Under the pieces are notes generated by a model. The model was not told where the DNA came from, made no database searches, and saw nothing but the letters and a program-made list of their open reading frames with translations. This document shows positions 13,514 to 22,856 of a stretch of DNA of 64,000 nt, piece after piece. Numbering within the stretch: position 1 is the first letter of the stretch; each line of letters starts with the position of its first letter. This DNA is from Candidatus Woesebacteria bacterium (GTDB lineage Bacteria; Patescibacteriota; Microgenomatia; UBA1400; MFAQ01), in contig DAOORK010000001.1 of the NCBI GenBank assembly GCA_035389185.1, positions 631,415-695,414 of the forward strand, in the 5' to 3' direction. Made by a program: the position numbers and the translations under genes.

Positions 13514-14380
13514 TTAATCAGCAATAAGTCGGAAAATACCACTCCAGTATTTTGGGGTGGGTAGTTGGTATCTCTCAACGACGTCGTAATAATTTCGTTT
13601 TAGCTTAGCTTGAAGCTTTTCTGTCTGTTTAAGGTAAATTTCTTCTAGTTCGTCTTCTGGTAGGTTTCCATATTTTTCTTCAATGAGATTTCCGGTTGCA
13701 CGCTCAATTGCGGCAGATATTAGAGTGTTGTATTCACCACGGTTTTTATCATTATTGAGCATGATTAATGATTCTTCTACCCTGAGGAATGATTTGATTT
13801 TTGATCTATCTTGCGAGCTTATGTCATGACGTTTTCTTTTTAACACCCTGCTTATGCTCTTGTCTGGAGTTAAGTCGGATAAGAACTCTTGGGCATCGGT
13901 TAGTGCATTGAACACATCTTCTTTTGAGGTATTTATGCTTATTGGAATATATGTTCCTTGGGTTATTGGTGAAATGGCGGACGCTATGACGAAGTTTCTC
14001 TCAGCGATCAATCCGTTAGGTTTACGGTCAAACACAACGAAATCTACCAGTAGCTCGGGTGGAAGATTTAATTTAGTAGCCAATCTAATCTCGTCCTTTA
14101 GTAGTCTAGAGAGGATGAACCAGTTCATCATGGTAAAAACATGTGGGTCTAGCGGAGTGTTTTCTTTGTAGGTGGACTTCCAAGTATTGGCAAATTCATT
14201 TGCTAGGTCGAGATGGTTTTTCCCACTCCATTCGTATAGCGCTTTCTCATCAACAAATGGCCTTGTTATCCCAAGTTTCTCTCGGGCATTTATGGCTAGC
14301 TTGAAGGCAATATAGCTATTGAAAAACAACTGAACGCGAAGGGAGTAGTAATCTAACCCCTCAATTATTTTCATACTCAT
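13514..14380 (-). CDS. hypothetical protein, possibly Abi-like
   Basis: 288 aa; the N-terminal YYSLRVQLFF...Y segment loosely resembles the Abi_2 YYRLSxY motif; weak. Confidence 0.4.
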   Translation of the reverse strand: MSMKIIEGLDYYSLRVQLFFNSYIAFKLAINAREKLGITRPFVDEKALYEWSGKNHLDLANEFANTWKSTYKENTPLDPHVFTMMNWFILSRLLKDEIRLATKLNLPPELLVDFVVFDRKPNGLIAERNFVIASAISPITQGTYIPISINTSKEDVFNALTDAQEFLSDLTPDKSISRVLKRKRHDISSQDRSKIKSFLRVEESLIMLNNDKNRGEYNTLISAAIERATGNLIEEKYGNLPEDELEEIYLKQTEKLQAKLKRNYYDVVERYQLPTPKYWSGIFRLIAD

Positions 14381-14711: not shown

Positions 14712-14999
14712 TTATGGCCTCCAAAGTTTTTTGGCGATTAACCTTTTAAGCGCATTAAATAACCATTTGAACAGTAACACCAAGAGGAAGCATATTGCTA
14801 CAAGAATCCAGTAAATCCATCCTTGAGGATTGGGAGCAATATCAGCAATTAATCCACTGTCAGCCTCTAGAGTGAGGGCATAAAAGATGAACAAACCGAC
14901 CGTGGCGACGGGGATACAGACAGCTACTAATCCAATTCGGATTATTGTAAAAATTAGTTTAATGATTTTCCTTAGGAGTTCCTTTCTCTTTTTTGTCAT
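14712..14999 (-). CDS. small membrane protein (overlaps upstream membrane gene; possible frameshifted single gene)
   Basis: hydrophobic; 41-65 bp overlap with 14959..15447 in a different frame. Confidence 0.35.
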   Translation of the reverse strand: MTKKRKELLRKIIKLIFTIIRIGLVAVCIPVATVGLFIFYALTLEADSGLIADIAPNPQGWIYWILVAICFLLVLLFKWLFNALKRLIAKKLWRP

Positions 15000-15447
15000 T
15001 AAGTTTCTTATAGACAACACCAATTATTAGTAGCGTTATGACCATGGATAGGGCATAGATGATTGGTGATGCGATTTCATAAGATTGTATGAATACGCCT
15101 AAGATGAAAGTTACAGGAAGCTGAACGAGGAAGAAGAATGGTGCCCCAATTAAGAAGGTGGAAATTACAGCTCTTGTGTTTCTGAAAAATATTGCATCGA
15201 GGAAGCACTTTATTCCAACCAATAGGATATTTGATTCTTTCTGGCTGCTAGTATTTTCGAGTTGGTGATTTTTCCATTGGCTTATTAGGAAAATGGCAGC
15301 AGTTATGGCTATTGATACGACTGCAAGCTCTATAAGTCCAAGCAATACGTTGTTTGTTTCTTGGTAAAACATGGGGAGAAAAACAAGGAGAGTAATGGCT
15401 AGTAGCCACTTGTGTTTTTTAATGAAGGCTTTGTATTGGTCGATCAT
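14959..15447 (-). CDS. membrane protein (4 TM)
   Basis: hydrophobic helices. Confidence 0.45.
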   Translation of the reverse strand: MIDQYKAFIKKHKWLLAITLLVFLPMFYQETNNVLLGLIELAVVSIAITAAIFLISQWKNHQLENTSSQKESNILLVGIKCFLDAIFFRNTRAVISTFLIGAPFFFLVQLPVTFILGVFIQSYEIASPIIYALSMVITLLIIGVVYKKLNDKKEKGTPKENH

Positions 15448-15514: not shown

Positions 15515-15733
15515 GTGATATCCAAAGAAAAACTGAGCAAACTGATTGGGAAGCGAATTAGAGAGGAGAGGGAGAAAAGGGGGTTGTCGCAAGAAGCCTT
15601 AGCCGGTGACGCGGGTCTGTACAGGACTTATGTCGGTCACCTTGAAAATGGGAGGTATATGCCGACCATATTTACGATTTATCGTGTGGCTGAAGTGTTA
15701 AAGATCGATCCCCTGAGTTTGCTTAAGATTTAA
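15515..15733 (+). CDS. XRE-family HTH regulator, likely controller (C) protein of the downstream R-M module
   Basis: GLSQEALAGDAGLYRTYVGHLENG HTH; 72 aa; GTG start; lies just upstream of the C5-MTase gene. Confidence 0.65.
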   Translation: MISKEKLSKLIGKRIREEREKRGLSQEALAGDAGLYRTYVGHLENGRYMPTIFTIYRVAEVLKIDPLSLLKI

Positions 15734-15790
15734 ATTGTTGAGTTTGACGACCTGCTCGATTAAATCGTCATTGTTGGTTACAATGGGTGT

Positions 15791-16855
15791 ATGGCAAAGA
15801 AAATTAGGGTTGTAGACCTATTCTGTGGTATTGGTGGTCTAACCCATGGACTGATCAAGGAAGGTCTAGAGGTGGTGGCGGGAATAGACAACGATAATTC
15901 ATGCAAGTTTGGTTACGAGCATAACAATAGGGCAAAATTTATCGGTAAAGATATTCTTGAGGTTACGGCTGGTGAGGTAAGTAAGTTGTTTGGTAAAGGG
16001 GCGATCAGAGTCCTTGCGGGATGTGCTCCTTGTCAACCTTTCTCCAGATTGAATCTTAAAGAAATAACAAAAAAGCAACTTCAGCCACTTGAAAAATTTG
16101 CACAGTTGATTGAGGAGGTTAAGCCAGATATTGTTTCCATGGAAAATGTTAGTGAGTTGGCAAAAATGGACAAATATCCCATTTTTAAGACTTTCCTTGA
16201 TACCTTGGAAAGGAATGGTTACAGATATAAATATGAAGTTGTTGATGTTTCCGAATACGGCGTCCCCCAAAGCAGGAGGAGGCTTGTTTTGTTGGCTTCA
16301 AGATTTGGCGAGATTGAATTGGTGAAGCGGACACATAAAGACAACCGTGTGACTGTAAAAGACGTTATAAGAGATCTTGAGCCGATTCGGGATGGCGAAG
16401 TAAGTAGGAAAGACCCTCTCCATCGATCAAGAAAACTAAACGAGATTAATCTTAGGAGAGTAAAAGCTACTCCCCATGATGGTGGGGATTCGAGTGCGTG
16501 GAGTGAAGATCTTATTCTGAAATGTCACAGAAAAGAGTCTGGAAGTACTTATAAAAAAACTGTTTATGGTCGTATGCGATGGAATGAGCCAGCGCCTACA
16601 ATGACGACACAGTGTGTTGGGTTGGGAAATGGCCGTTTTGGTCACCCAGAGCAGGACAGGGCAATTAGCTTAAGGGAAGCGGCACGGTTTCAAACCTTTC
16701 CTGATAACTATCAGTTTTTTGATCCAAATACTCCATTTGTGACTGCTCATATAGCTAGGTTTATTGGTAATGCCGTGCCTGTGAGGCTAGGGTCTATAAT
16801 TGGGGCAAGTATAAAAATGCATATAAGTAGAAATGCCAAATCAATTCACATTTGA
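15791..16855 (+). CDS. dcm: DNA (cytosine-5)-methyltransferase
   Basis: Motif I LFCGIGG; motif IV GCAPCQPFS; motif VI MENV; motif X RFIGNAVPV. Confidence 0.9.
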   Translation: MAKKIRVVDLFCGIGGLTHGLIKEGLEVVAGIDNDNSCKFGYEHNNRAKFIGKDILEVTAGEVSKLFGKGAIRVLAGCAPCQPFSRLNLKEITKKQLQPLEKFAQLIEEVKPDIVSMENVSELAKMDKYPIFKTFLDTLERNGYRYKYEVVDVSEYGVPQSRRRLVLLASRFGEIELVKRTHKDNRVTVKDVIRDLEPIRDGEVSRKDPLHRSRKLNEINLRRVKATPHDGGDSSAWSEDLILKCHRKESGSTYKKTVYGRMRWNEPAPTMTTQCVGLGNGRFGHPEQDRAISLREAARFQTFPDNYQFFDPNTPFVTAHIARFIGNAVPVRLGSIIGASIKMHISRNAKSIHI

Positions 16856-18545
16856 GTTATCACTAAGTGTCCTAAATCATTTAGGCAGAAACCTTTATAG
16901 AAGCTTCGTCACAATATTGGGGGAGGCGATCTCAAATTCATGGGATGCAGATTCAAATAAGGTCAACATATACATTGATCGTGAACACAACAGCCTGTGT
17001 GTTAGAGATGATGGTGTGGGAATGACTGCTGATGAATTTCAGAACAAGTTTCTGAGAATTGGCTATTCAAAACGTAATTCTGAAGGTAGTAGCTCACCTG
17101 CTGGTAGACCTTATATAGGTAGAAAGGGTATCGGGAAGCTCGCTTTACTTTCATGCGCTGACAAGATTCATGTCATTAGCAAAAAAAGTGGTGGTGAATA
17201 TGTAGGAGGTGTGGTGGTTAACTCTGAGCTTGATGATGCAATCAGAGATGATTTATTGACTTCTCAATATCCACTGTCTGATATGGATATGAGCAAATTT
17301 GAGGACGTGATTGGTGGTCATGACCACGGGACAATAATATATTTTGAGAACATAAAAGATGGGGTTAAGAATAGTTTGACGTTTTTAAAGAAAGCTATTG
17401 CGTTGTATTTTCGTTTTTCGTTGATTGATCAATCGTTTAAGATTTTTTTAGGAGACGATGATGAAATTACTTACGCCGATCTCGAGGATTTATCGAGCAA
17501 AACAGAGTTTTTGTGGAAGGTAGGTGAATATGAGGATCCGTATGTAGAGAACTTAGAGGCTCGTTTTACTACAAAAGATAATGAGAAGAGGGGGATTGAA
17601 ATTGATGGAGCTTATGGTTTTGTTGCCTCTGTAAAAAAGCCGCGTGATCTAAAAATCTTGACCACTGATGAGCGGGTGGGGGTTGACTTGTTTGTAAACG
17701 GGCGTTTGAGAGAAAGAGATATTTTGAAGCACATCCCCACAGCAAGGTTGGCGGAAAACTATTTATATGGACAGATTCATCTTGACGATATGAATGACGA
17801 GCAAGATCGTTTCACAAGTAGTCGTGAAAGCGTTGTAGCGGATGACGATAAATATGAGCAATTCTTGGAAGTAATGCGAAGTAAAATATTGGAGATTGTT
17901 AACGACTGGGATAAATGGAGAATTAAGCACAGGGAAGATGGGGATCAGGAAAACGATAATATGCCTAAGGCAGAGAGAAAGTCGAGAGAGCTGTTTAATC
18001 AGATCGCTGGAGAATATGAATTGCCATCGGGAAATGCTAATGCTGGAAAAGTAGATGCATGGGTTGATTCATTGGCTGATGACGCTCAATACAACTTTCG
18101 TTCGTATGCAGAGTGCTTTGTATCCGAGAATTTGCTTCGTAAGCATATTGAAGATGGCGGTGTGGCACCTACGTCTTGTATGAACCCCGATTTGCAGGGA
18201 AATACATGTGAAGATAGATTTGATGAAGAAGCTGGTAATACCAGCTTGTGTAGTTTTTGTAAGGCTGAGAGAAGTAAACAGGGATTGCAAATTCAAAAGA
18301 ACGAAGCGGGAACGTCGATACAGATCAGAGAAGCAGAAGAGAATCCATTAATGTATATGGATTACATAGATCTAGCAAAGATAGCCGACGATGACATACT
18401 CAAAGAAGAAGATAAACCATATAAGCCATTGAGAAACTCGGTAATGCACACTTCGAGATTGACACAAGCTGCTAAGACGAAGTTGACCTCTGTTTTTGAT
18501 AATGTTGTTGCGACTGTAAAGCAGTTGGTCGGGTCTAACAGTTGA
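16833..18545 (+). CDS. GHKL (Bergerat-fold, MORC/MutL-like) ATPase, candidate restriction/defence component
   Basis: N-box EAISNSWDA; G1 DDGVGM; G2 GRKGIGKLA; Cys-rich C-terminus; the gene overlaps the dcm 3' end by 23 bp. Confidence 0.7.
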   Translation: MPNQFTFELSLSVLNHLGRNLYRSFVTILGEAISNSWDADSNKVNIYIDREHNSLCVRDDGVGMTADEFQNKFLRIGYSKRNSEGSSSPAGRPYIGRKGIGKLALLSCADKIHVISKKSGGEYVGGVVVNSELDDAIRDDLLTSQYPLSDMDMSKFEDVIGGHDHGTIIYFENIKDGVKNSLTFLKKAIALYFRFSLIDQSFKIFLGDDDEITYADLEDLSSKTEFLWKVGEYEDPYVENLEARFTTKDNEKRGIEIDGAYGFVASVKKPRDLKILTTDERVGVDLFVNGRLRERDILKHIPTARLAENYLYGQIHLDDMNDEQDRFTSSRESVVADDDKYEQFLEVMRSKILEIVNDWDKWRIKHREDGDQENDNMPKAERKSRELFNQIAGEYELPSGNANAGKVDAWVDSLADDAQYNFRSYAECFVSENLLRKHIEDGGVAPTSCMNPDLQGNTCEDRFDEEAGNTSLCSFCKAERSKQGLQIQKNEAGTSIQIREAEENPLMYMDYIDLAKIADDDILKEEDKPYKPLRNSVMHTSRLTQAAKTKLTSVFDNVVATVKQLVGSNS

Positions 18546-18741
18546 TATGACTCTAAAACGGGCTAGAAGAATCTTAGGGAAAAATGGGAAAGGGCTCACT
18601 GATGGAGAGCTTACAAAAGAGATTGAGATGGCAAGTTTTCTTGCGCAATTGGTTTTAAGTGTTGCGCGAACTAAAAAGCTGCCTTAGCCTTAATAAGCTA
18701 TAATTTCGGTTGGGAATACATATTCTTGATTGAAGAAAAGA

Positions 18742-19959
18742 ATGGCAAATAAGAATCTATCAAAAGCAAAAAACGCAAAGAACGATGAGTTTTATACTCA
18801 ATTTCTCGATATTCAAAAAGAAATTGAGGCGTATCTGGAGTATGACCCTAACACTTTCCGTAGCAAAGTGGTTTATAGCAATTGTGACGATCCGTTTGAA
18901 AGCAATTTTTTCAGATACTTTGTACTTAATTTCAATAAACTTGGGTTAAAACAGCTTATTACCACAAGTTATAAACCATCGCCGGTAGCCAATACGCAAC
19001 TACTGCTGTTTGGTGATGATATAACGCTTGCAAAATCTAAAGGACGTCCGAAAATAACGGCTAACAAATTTATTATCAACGAAGTTCGTGACCTAGATGG
19101 TGATGGTGAGTTTAATCTTAAGGATGTTGCTACCCAACTTAAATCAAATAAACACAACGAGTGGTGTCCTTTAGAGGGAGACGGTGACTTTCGTAGTGAT
19201 GAGTGTATAGAACTCCTAAAGCAATCGGACATTGTGGTAACCAATCCTCCATTTAGTCTCTTCCGAGAGTATGTTAGACAACTTGTGGACTACGACAAGA
19301 AATTTGTTGTTATTGGCAATATGAACGCAATTACTTATAAGGAAATTTTCCCACTAATTAAAACAAACAAATTGTGGCTGGGAGCAACCGGAAATGGTAG
19401 TGATATGGTTTTTGCAGTGCCAAATGGTACTGAAATAGCGGAGTCTGATAGGCAGAAGGCGGCCAGACTGGGGTATGTTGGGAATTATACGAGACTTGGC
19501 AATTCTTGCTGGTTCACAAACCTTGATCATGGGAGACGTCATAAACCGCTGCCATTAATGAAGGAAGCTGATGTAATAAAATTCAGCACAAAGAAGCCGT
19601 TTGAAAAATATGACAACTACGATGCAATTGAAGTTTCAATGGTTAAAAATATCCCCAGTGATTATGGTGGTGTTATGGGTGTGCCTATTAGTTTTCTGGA
19701 TAAATATAATCCTGATCAATTTGTGATTTTAGGAGCGACACAGAGAGGCTGTCACGACGAGGTTCCTGATACGAAAAAATACGATGATTATTGGGAAGTT
19801 AGACAAAACGGCGAAAGAACAGGATCATCTGGAGGAAAAACGAATGAAAACGCAAATTTGGTGGGTAACGATGGTAAGAAGAACTATTTTATAAATAATG
19901 AGGGTCGTATAATTCAGTCAGCCTATCAAAGAATCTTTATAAGGCGCAAAAATAAATAA
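18742..19959 (+). CDS. EcoRI-methylase-like adenine (NPPF) DNA methyltransferase
   Basis: N-terminal AKNDEFYTQ; catalytic motif [10 protein letters not shown]; ATG at 18742 chosen over the TTG at 18730. Confidence 0.65.
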
Positions 19960-19960
19960 T

Positions 19961-21130
19961 ATGCATACAACATTAAGGACTACTATTTCTGTAAAAGATA
20001 TATGTGATGGTTTTGTATACAACGAATTGGAAGGTAAAGGACTGTTCGGTTTATCTGGCAATCTGACTATCCAACCCGAATATCAACGAAATTATATTTA
20101 CGCTTCAGATGGTGGAAAAAGAGAGATAGCGGTCATTGATTCTATACTTAGAGATTATCCTATTGGCTTAATTTATTTTAATAAACTTTCCGACGATAAG
20201 TTAGAGGTTTTAGATGGTCAACAGCGTATCACTAGTATTGGACGTTTTGTCACAGATAAATTTGCAATTAAAGACGAGAATGGAATGGAACAGTATTTCA
20301 GCGGCTTGGCAAGTGATAAGAAAACCAAGATATTAGAGACAAAACTGCTGATCTATGAATGTGAAGGAGCAGAAAGTGAGATAAAAGAATGGTTCAAAAC
20401 AATCAACATTGCCGGTGTTCCGCTTAATGATCAAGAATTATTGAACGCGGTTTATTCTGGGCGTTTTGTAACTATGGCTAAAGAGGAGTTTAGTAATAGT
20501 CAAAATGCTAACATCCATAAATGGAGTGCTTACATAAAGGGGAGTGTTAACAGACAAGAGTTTTTGGAGCGAGCTCTTGAATGGGTGAGTAGGGGAAAGA
20601 TTGGTGATTATATGAGTCTTCATCGTAATGATGGTGACATTGATGAGCTAAAAACCTACTTTAATACTGTAATTGACTGGGTATCGAGTGTCTTTGTAGA
20701 TGTCGAGAGTGAAATGAGTGGATTAGAGTGGGGAAGAATGTACGAGCAATATCGTGAAAATACCTATAACCCCATCAAAATATCAGAAGATGTACATAGA
20801 CTTTACGGAGACCCTTATGTAAAAAATCGTAAAGGAATTTTTGAATATATACTTGGTCGTTCTAAAAACGCGAGATTGCTGGATGTCAGGGTTTTTGATG
20901 AAGTAACTAAGAAGTCGGTTTATACAAGACAGACTGATTTGGCAAGATCTAAGGGTGAATCGAACTGTCCCCTTTGTGCAATTGGTCATGACGCTGCTAA
21001 GTCTAAAGTTTGGGAGTTTGGAGAGATGGACGCTGACCATGTAGCAGCGTGGAGCAAGGGCGGGGCAACTAACCCCAGTAACTGCCAGATGCTCTGCAAA
21101 ACGCACAATCGAGCAAAAGGAAATCGATAA
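19961..21130 (+). CDS. DUF262 (ParB/Srx-like, DGQQR) N-domain fused to an HNH nuclease; candidate restriction endonuclease (GmrSD-like)
   Basis: [13 protein letters not shown]; C-terminal CPLC...[12 protein letters not shown]...[13 protein letters not shown]/Zn-finger; starts 1 nt after the MTase stop. Confidence 0.7.
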
Positions 21131-21213: not shown

Positions 21214-21519
21214 ATGTCCAAAAATCCTTTGATAAATGCGCTAAGCGCTTCAGCCTATATTATCCTTGTTGTCACTGTAATGACTTTTGTGACGCAACCC
21301 TTAAAAAACAAACCAGATACTTTTTTTGCTCCGATCACAATGTTATTTGTATTGACCCTTTCTGTTGCTGTAATGGCATACTTGTTTTTTTATCAACCAC
21401 TTCTACTTTTTATTGAAGGAAAGAAAAAAGATGCAGTAAATCTATTTGTGAAGACAGTAGGAATCTTCGCCGTTTTTACAACTGTAGTTTTGATATTACT
21501 TTTTTCGGGTTTGATTTAG
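21214..21519 (+). CDS. small membrane protein
   Basis: 3 TM helices. Confidence 0.4.
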   Translation: MSKNPLINALSASAYIILVVTVMTFVTQPLKNKPDTFFAPITMLFVLTLSVAVMAYLFFYQPLLLFIEGKKKDAVNLFVKTVGIFAVFTTVVLILLFSGLI

Positions 21520-21580
21520 GTTTTAGTTATTTATAATAGTGACTTTGTAAAGTAAATTACTTTTGTGTTAGGATGGTTTT

Positions 21581-22231
21581 ATGTTTAACAAGATAATCGT
21601 TGGATTTTTCTTTACGATATTGTTGTCAGGATGTAGTCTGCAGGAAACTGGTTCCCCAAATGTTGCAAATCAAAACGGGGAAAATGTAGATAAACAGGGA
21701 CAAGGGAGCGTTGGAAAATGTAAACAAGAGGCGGTGGCAATTGAAGGTTATGGAGATAAGGGAAAGAGATTGAGTAATTGTTTTGTGGAATATCCTGGAG
21801 AGCCGTCAAGACAGGATAAAAGTTATTATGTTTTAGAAGATGTCTGCGGACAGTTTACCAAGGAGTTTATTCAAAATGCTTTAGGAAAACCGATATTAAG
21901 GATTCAACCTCCTGAACATGACAGCCTGTTTAACTGTAGGTATTATTTTGATGATAAAGATAATCATGTGCTATTGGTATTTGAGTATTTGAAAATAGAA
22001 AACCAAAAAAAGGGTCAGGAAGAAATGGGTAGAAGAACGGAAGTGAGCGACAAAATTCCCATGAGAAATATGCTGGTGTGGCAACCAAATGGTTTGCTAA
22101 ACAATATTTATTTGGTACTAGGAGATGAGAAGTTTATCAGCATTGACCGATCTTCCGGATCCGGATTGACACCAGATGAGCTAATTAATTTTGCGGCAAA
22201 TATTGCAAAAGAGATTAAAGATTATAAATAA
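21581..22231 (+). CDS. lipoprotein (signal peptide plus lipobox LLSGCSL)
   Basis: N-terminal signal with Cys lipobox. Confidence 0.5.
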   Translation: MFNKIIVGFFFTILLSGCSLQETGSPNVANQNGENVDKQGQGSVGKCKQEAVAIEGYGDKGKRLSNCFVEYPGEPSRQDKSYYVLEDVCGQFTKEFIQNALGKPILRIQPPEHDSLFNCRYYFDDKDNHVLLVFEYLKIENQKKGQEEMGRRTEVSDKIPMRNMLVWQPNGLLNNIYLVLGDEKFISIDRSSGSGLTPDELINFAANIAKEIKDYK

Positions 22232-22245
22232 ATAAAGGAAATAAT

Positions 22246-22572
22246 ATGCAACCGGAAAAAATAATAGTTTTTGGACCAATAATTGTCTTTTTTGCCATTT
22301 TTGGTTTGATTGTGTTGGGTTTTGTTTTATTTATTGTCAAGATAATTAGGAAAACCAAAAACACTTACTGGAAGGGGAAGATAATTGATAAAAACTATCA
22401 TGAAACTGAGGATATGGAAGACCGAAAGACAGATCATTTTGTTTTGGTAGTTGATGTTGAGGGAAGCCGGGTACGGAATGTGGAGGTAAATAGAGCGCTC
22501 TACGATAGCTGTAAAGTGGGGGATGTATTGGAGAAACCGTTGGGTAAATTGAACCCTGTTAAGGTTAAATGA
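22246..22572 (+). CDS. small membrane protein
   Basis: single N-terminal TM. Confidence 0.4.
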   Translation: MQPEKIIVFGPIIVFFAIFGLIVLGFVLFIVKIIRKTKNTYWKGKIIDKNYHETEDMEDRKTDHFVLVVDVEGSRVRNVEVNRALYDSCKVGDVLEKPLGKLNPVKVK

Positions 22573-22856
22573 GAGGCTTGATTGGTTATATTTTTGCCCC
22601 CAGACTTAATCGTTTGGTGGTGTGGGGTGGTCTGTTGCTCTTGGTTGGGTTGATTTTGCTACCTATTTTGATTGGATTTCCTTTGCTGGTGGTTGGGAGT
22701 TGTTTGTTTACTGTGGGAGCAATGATCTCTGTGGTTGAGCGTTTTCCGGGAGGTAAAAAGATGGTTGGGTATTACAAGGAGATGTTTGTGCGGATGGGGA
22801 AGTTTTTAAAGATATTGATTAAGAAAGCCGTGGAATATATTGAGAGCGTGATTTGA
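22569..22856 (+). CDS. small membrane protein
   Basis: 2 TM; the 4-bp start/stop overlap with the upstream gene suggests translational coupling. Confidence 0.4.
   Translation: MRGLIGYIFAPRLNRLVVWGGLLLLVGLILLPILIGFPLLVVGSCLFTVGAMISVVERFPGGKKMVGYYKEMFVRMGKFLKILIKKAVEYIESVI

Follow-up and report, generated by a model that had tools for sequence, protein, structure and literature searches.

An EcoRI-family methylase and a DUF262-HNH nuclease as a probable two-gene Type II-like restriction-modification module in Candidatus Woesebacteria

A 64,000-nucleotide (nt) stretch of a Candidatus Woesebacteria metagenome-assembled genome (GenBank assembly GCA_035389185.1, contig DAOORK010000001.1, positions 631,415 to 695,414 of the forward strand; hereafter the window) carries two adjacent genes, one encoding an EcoRI-family DNA methyltransferase (methylase, M) and the other a nuclease (R) that joins a DUF262 domain of ParB/Srx fold to a C-terminal HNH domain. 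Together they very probably form a two-gene restriction-modification (R-M) module of Type II-like design. In the proposed mechanism, the methylase would use S-adenosylmethionine (SAM) to place N6-methyladenine (m6A) on host copies of a short target sequence, the nuclease would be made in step with the methylase by way of the stop-1 nt-start junction between their genes, and the zinc-stabilized HNH site (beta-beta-alpha-metal) at the nuclease C-terminus would cut DNA that lacks the mark.

Arrangement of the methylase and nuclease genes

Linked, separate genes for modification and restriction are a feature of Type II systems, and the two genes of the window lie next to each other, in the same orientation and 1 nt apart (Table 1). 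The methylase reading frame can be opened at an in-frame TTG (18730) or ATG (18742), and the ATG was taken as the true start because homologues begin with MANxNL. The original prediction, made from the letters of the window, had placed the methylase stop and the nuclease start a single nucleotide apart. Coordinates and spacing were both borne out, with the TAA stop at 19957-19959, a single T at 19960 and the nuclease ATG at 19961. The same TAAtATG junction was found in 40 of the 77 related loci with a readable junction (consensus AAATAAtATG), and a 4-nt ATGA overlap joins the genes in 20 of these 77, so the 1-nt spacing reflects more than chance. As no GGAGG-type Shine-Dalgarno sequence was found upstream of the nuclease start, translational coupling by termination-reinitiation is the likeliest reading of the junction, as we infer from its sequence.

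Both proteins have exact counterparts in GenBank (HOX96458.1 and HOX96459.1, on a contig of 905,580 bp), where annotation already covers the two genes of the pair. In the 196-nt gap before the methylase (18546-18741), a TATAAT lies ~30 nt 5' of the ATG, at a place where a promoter scan of the + strand did not rise above chance, and TTGCGC(A/G)A occurs twice, 14 nt apart (18639-18668).

The methylase belongs to the EcoRI family

The motifs of a SAM-dependent DNA methyltransferase, a further Type II feature, are present in the methylase. It gave a full-length match to the Pfam model EcoRI_methylase (PF13651, E 1.5e-127), matched the PADLOC model MTase_II PDLC03297 (E 1e-107), shares 46.7% identity over 330 amino acids (aa) with authentic M.EcoRI and contains the sequence NPPF as catalytic motif IV, in a block common to M.EcoRI. 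Motifs of the form NPPF or NPPY are typical of N6-adenine methyltransferases. On E. coli plasmid pU90-3, authentic M.EcoRI adjoins the "type-2 restriction enzyme EcoRI", and its identity to each of the methylase subtypes partnering a DUF262-HNH nuclease is 40-48%. The two main subtypes of partner methylase share 42-47% identity with each other, and their nucleases are ~77% identical. Overall, partner methylases vary far more (42-86% identity) than nucleases do. NCBIfam contained no model for either the methylase or the nuclease.

The nuclease combines a DUF262 domain with a zinc-finger HNH domain

Pfam assigned the N-terminal part of the nuclease to DUF262/GmrSD_N, which is followed by a helical linker and a C-terminal zinc-finger HNH domain (Table 1). 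Residues 355-389 match PF01844 (HNH, E 9e-7), and this model and PF14279 (HNH_5) were the only Pfam matches at the C-terminus (E<=0.01); DUF1524 (PF07510) was absent from the nuclease at the same threshold. An alignment of 40 sequences reaching down to 38% identity was used to identify invariant residues, which include Y41, Q42 and R43, E82, and D85, G86, Q87, Q88 and R89 in the N-terminal part, along with C336, C339, D359, H360, N374, C379 and N383 near the C-terminus. Judged from sequence, these are the nucleotide-pocket motifs of DUF262 and the active site of the zinc-finger HNH domain.

An AlphaFold2 model of the nuclease had a mean predicted local distance difference test score (pLDDT) of 81 and a predicted template modeling score (pTM) of 0.50; the domains therefore appear to be modeled well, with their mutual placement uncertain. 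When this model was compared with known structures using Foldseek, the top match was BrxU, a Type IV enzyme of the GmrSD family (probability 0.97), followed by ParB CTPase domains, Gme HNH and EcoKMcrA. A profile search against PDB sequences matched the nuclease to 4h9d and 7p9k, and a single-sequence search of the same sequences returned nothing meaningful. Pfam, the profile search and the structure comparison thus confirmed the ParB/Srx-like and HNH folds that had been proposed for this protein, for which structure prediction had been suggested as a check. The nuclease is also, as had been remarked, much shorter (389 aa) than BrxU (580 aa) and SspE (560 aa).

The invariance of the QR and DGQQR motifs makes it plausible that the nuclease depends on a nucleoside triphosphate (NTP). 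For the same reason, cleavage with a divalent metal only and without an NTP, another Type II feature, may not hold for this protein, which would in that case be Type II-like but NTP-dependent. On the model of BrxU and SspE, the DUF262 domain probably binds and hydrolyzes NTP and would most likely act as an NTP-driven switch that gates the HNH domain, while the helical middle part most likely helps to read sequence and methylation state. That the nuclease cuts unmethylated DNA through such a ParB/Srx switch or, as a variant, senses host m6A in the way that SspE senses phosphorothioate, is a tentative proposal about which we lean towards doubt.

Linkage, distribution and conservation of the pair

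Close relatives of the nuclease were found in at least 588 species-representative genomes (one genome was scanned per species), of which 80 were fetched. These 80 span the Patescibacteria or Candidate Phyla Radiation (CPR), Chloroflexota, Bacteroidota, Proteobacteria, Omnitrophota, Planctomycetota and DPANN archaea. The nuclease family counts over 8000 clusters when grouped at 90% identity and, at E<=1e-30, 426 when grouped at 50%, and tblastn searches of plasmid and phage collections recovered full-length relatives in 44 plasmids and in Flavobacterium phage laban6-1.

In 77 of 84 related loci, the nuclease is preceded on its own strand by an EcoRI-family methylase. In the remaining seven, the sequence upstream extends no further than 1.1 kb or, at one locus (L012), contains cargo genes; at another (L038), cargo genes of the same kind set the methylase 3.2 kb from the nuclease. 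Not one of the 84 loci had enough upstream sequence and still lacked a methylase. In all four annotated regions that were opened (E. faecium pBN83-1, a 9-kb Pediococcus plasmid, a Flavobacterium phage and an 11-kb Lactiplantibacillus pentosus plasmid), the gene immediately before the nuclease, in the same orientation, is annotated as an "adenine-specific methyltransferase EcoRI family protein", and in L. pentosus the pair has been kept though the nuclease is only 40% identical. When viral contigs were collected using the methylase as query, a nuclease was found downstream in 21 of 35, at identities down to 36%. At least eight viral contigs have a methylase with at least 3 kb of downstream sequence and no nuclease within it (L085, L090, L095, L097, L099, L100, L107 and L111), and these solitary methylases may be phage-borne orphans that serve in counter-defense. 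The methylase can thus stand alone and the nuclease not demonstrably so, an asymmetry expected of an R-M system because a nuclease is dangerous without its methylase. EcoRI_methylase, GmrSD_N and HNH also occur together in a single chain of 688 aa (P0282), a single cluster representative that may be an assembly or frameshift artefact. Through this linkage and the conserved junction, comparative genomics supports the original prediction of a cognate modification and restriction pair, probably coupled in translation.

The genes around the pair differ from locus to locus, which indicates that methylase and nuclease move as a unit; the module would travel in this form among chromosomes, small plasmids and phages, and its small-plasmid copies probably double as an addiction cassette. 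At about one related locus in five, between one and three additional genes separate methylase and nuclease (L007, L008, L012, L013, L020, L024, L036, L038, L046, L055, L057, L066 and L079). They include Bro-N, RhuM, an AAA_15 ATPase with DUF2130, PIN_8, Shedu SduA_C, Schlafen/AlbA_2 and a Dam-class methylase, and the last inserted gene usually retains the TAAtATG junction to the nuclease. The gap between the two genes looks like a landing pad for other defense genes.

When the nuclease gene was compared with those of 80 relatives, synonymous sites were saturated (proportion of synonymous differences, pS, ~0.83) while the nonsynonymous proportion (pN) was ~0.13, from which we infer strong purifying selection on the protein. 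Protein identity of 75-80% from CPR bacteria to DPANN archaea is unusually high for a restriction enzyme. Overall, the system is among the most widespread and best conserved R-M modules seen in this analysis.

Comparison with known systems and alternative explanations

The original prediction had also raised the pair as possibly new, which does not stand. Besides the methylase match given above, the nuclease matches the PADLOC Type II model REase_II PDLC03418 (residues 8-388 against 7-371 of 372, E 1.1e-81, 272.8 bits), and the number of genomes and clusters and the GenBank annotation point the same way. As far as sequence matches tell, the pair is catalogued and annotated, and a literature search found no characterized member. 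The length of PDLC03418 (372 aa) is that of a 372-378-aa subfamily common in gut Firmicutes, whereas the window nuclease belongs to a 389-aa subfamily that is ~41% identical to it. PADLOC cites REBASE for its R-M content. ClaI (41.6 kDa) was considered as a prototype of the DUF262-HNH nuclease and found no support.

The likeness to the EcoRI system lies in the methylase (its identity to M.EcoRI and the NPPF block) and in the two-gene Type II arrangement. R.EcoRI is a PD-(D/E)XK enzyme unrelated to the DUF262 plus HNH nuclease of the window, the gene order on pU90-3 is R then M whereas that of the window is M then R, and the window methylase has other variable segments and a C-terminal extension of ~70 aa relative to M.EcoRI. 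HNH-type Type II restriction endonucleases and McrA (KpnI, Hpy99I and PacI; EcoKMcrA) are also among the closest known systems. Surveys of 2008 and 2014 describe no ParB/Srx NTP-binding domain in any HNH Type II family that they list, and the terms "ParB" and "DUF262" do not occur in one of these texts. In the reviews and surveys consulted, the only enzymes listed with DUF262 are GmrSD, BrxU, SspE, Menshen, Dazbog and PD-T4-2.

Among these, SspE suggests a different logic for the pair, in which the nuclease would read host m6A through DUF262 and the helical part, its NTPase would be stimulated and unmarked invading DNA would be nicked or cut. On this view, activity as well as protection would depend on the methylase. 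We consider this unlikely, as SspE and DndI carry DUF1524, which Pfam did not find in the smaller HNH nuclease of the window, and the similarity to SspE is confined to the DUF262 fold. Their phosphorothioate mark is the product of a multi-gene pathway, whereas in the window a single methylase would supply m6A as the mark. Moreover, the methylase-first stop-start coupling, the apparent M-R fusion and the carriage on small plasmids follow the classical Type II pattern.

The structural match to BrxU, the Pfam name GmrSD_N for the N-terminal domain and the label "McrA" that the Joint Genome Institute (JGI) gives to some homologues would all suit a Type IV nuclease of the GmrSD kind, directed at phage DNA carrying some other modification, with the methylase an independent orphan or counter-measure that merely travels along. 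The window nuclease does share with the GmrSD family a PF03235 N-terminal domain with an invariant DGQQR. However, GmrSD and BrxU have ~580 aa, a DUF1524 nuclease domain in place of the PF01844 zinc-finger HNH and no cognate methylase, and they attack modified cytosines. Lacking DUF1524 and having a cognate methylase, the window nuclease is, by its sequence features, not a member of the GmrSD family. An independent enzyme would need neither linkage to a single methylase family in 77 of 84 loci across phyla nor a conserved coupling junction, GmrSD-family genes are typically solitary, and an apparent fusion of methylase and nuclease exists; this explanation is accordingly quite improbable. It is scarcely credible that the nuclease is a general DNA-damage enzyme or a selfish homing-type HNH endonuclease lying by chance beside a solitary methyltransferase, for although HNH genes are common mobile elements and phages hold relatives, the full architecture and the methylase partner are kept in at least 588 genomes with differing flanks, the nuclease is under strong purifying selection and no intron or intein context was found.

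Several points weigh against a Type II-like module. Every characterized DUF262 nuclease (GmrSD, BrxU and SspE) reads modified DNA and not the absence of modification. The literature search returned no biochemical or genetic test of any family member and no paper on an R-M pair of the classical kind with a DUF262 nuclease, nor did it reveal whether the seed of PDLC03418 was a characterized enzyme or a REBASE prediction. In a consensus scan, promoter and terminator signals around the pair did not exceed chance. Finally, neither GAATTC nor other palindromes were clearly avoided in the window or in pooled flanks of other carriers, and no recognition site could be inferred.

Recognition site

Oligonucleotide avoidance was assessed using Markov models of order 1-4 on the window and per-locus models on pooled flanks of carriers (404 kb from 78 genomes). 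GAATTC occurs 8 times in the window against 12.5-31.8 expected, a depletion that depends on the model, and it was not depleted in the pooled flanks (observed/expected ratio, O/E, 0.83-0.93 over 404 kb). The most depleted palindromic hexamers of the window were AAATTT and TTTAAA (O/E 0.4-0.7). GGCC was the most depleted GC tetramer, with O/E values of 0.56 in the window and 0.64 in the pooled flanks of other carriers, which could be linked to the neighboring C5-methylase system described below.

Direct transfer of GAATTC from M.EcoRI was rejected as evidence, as the test of invariant columns does not discriminate: a solitary Campylobacter (C. coli) methylase shares 60 of 68 such columns and M.EcoRI 59 of 68. 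GAATTC cannot be assumed for the window methylase because of its different variable segments and its C-terminal extension. Since M.EcoRI is similarly close to every partner-methylase subtype, an EcoRI-like site with an AATT core can serve as a reasonable lead and no more, and the nuclease might in addition recognize such a site with a fold unrelated to EcoRI.

Genomic neighborhood

Upstream of the pair, a C (control) protein with a helix-turn-helix (HTH), a C5-cytosine methylase and a GHKL-ATPase protein make up a second, adjacent Type II R-M operon of three genes on the + strand (15515-18545). Over its first 374 residues, the GHKL protein matches the BbrUII/HgiDII restriction-enzyme family (NF050001, E 1e-87, which falls short of the model cutoff) as well as PADLOC REase_II PDLC03419, and its C-terminal 200 aa gave no match in Pfam, PADLOC or NCBIfam. 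The two systems together form an R-M islet from 15.5 to 21.1 kb. A functional link between the methylase-nuclease pair and the GHKL protein was rejected because the flanks of the pair vary between loci. No composition break was detected at the islet borders, and no tRNA genes were found in the 64-kb window.

Table 1 Positions of the methylase-nuclease pair, its predicted domains and motifs, and neighboring features in the window (ORF, open reading frame)
Feature	Position	Strand	Basis or remark
288-aa ORF	13514-14380	-	Islet flank, no Pfam match
162-aa membrane-like ORF	14959-15447	-	Islet flank, no Pfam match
C (control) protein with HTH	15515-15733	+	PADLOC Control_protein, E 2e-12
C5-cytosine methylase	15791-16855	+	PF00145, E 8e-61
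GHKL-ATPase protein, 570 aa, 23-nt overlap with C5-cytosine methylase	16833-18545	+	
M gene, EcoRI-family (PF13651) N6-adenine DNA methyltransferase, 405 aa	18742-19959	+	Pfam, PADLOC, M.EcoRI identity, GenBank HOX96458.1
Catalytic motif IV NPPF, methylase residues 168-171	19243-19254	+	Translation; block common to M.EcoRI
Junction TAA-t-ATG (methylase stop, 1-nt spacer, nuclease start)	19957-19963	+	ORF list; recurs in related loci
R gene, DUF262(ParB/Srx)-helical linker-HNH nuclease, 389 aa	19961-21130	+	ORF, Pfam; GenBank HOX96459.1
DUF262/GmrSD_N (ParB/Srx-fold) domain, nuclease residues 36-165	20066-20455	+	PF03235, E 4e-21
YQR, nuclease residues 41-43	within 20066-20455	+	Invariant in alignment
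DGQQR, nuclease residues 85-89	20213-20227	+	Translation; invariant in alignment
Zinc-finger HNH domain, nuclease residues 336-389 (C336, C339, D359, H360, N374, C379, H382, N383)	20966-21127	+	
Run of small hydrophobic ORFs	21214-22856	+	Downstream of R-M islet

Implications

In reviews, DUF262 is the hallmark of sensors of modified DNA, and here it occurs in what appears to be an ordinary restriction system protected by a methylase. For annotation, this means that a "DUF262 domain-containing protein" beside an "EcoRI family methyltransferase" should be interpreted as an R-M pair and not as a Type IV enzyme. A single characterized member would bear on the ability of a ParB-type NTP switch to control a Type II-like nuclease, on the recognition site of the family and on its use as a reagent. 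If NTP-switched restriction of unmethylated DNA is true of this family, it would be the first classical, methylase-partnered R-M nuclease built on a DUF262 scaffold, and would link ordinary R-M systems in evolution to the modification-sensing enzymes GmrSD, BrxU and SspE.

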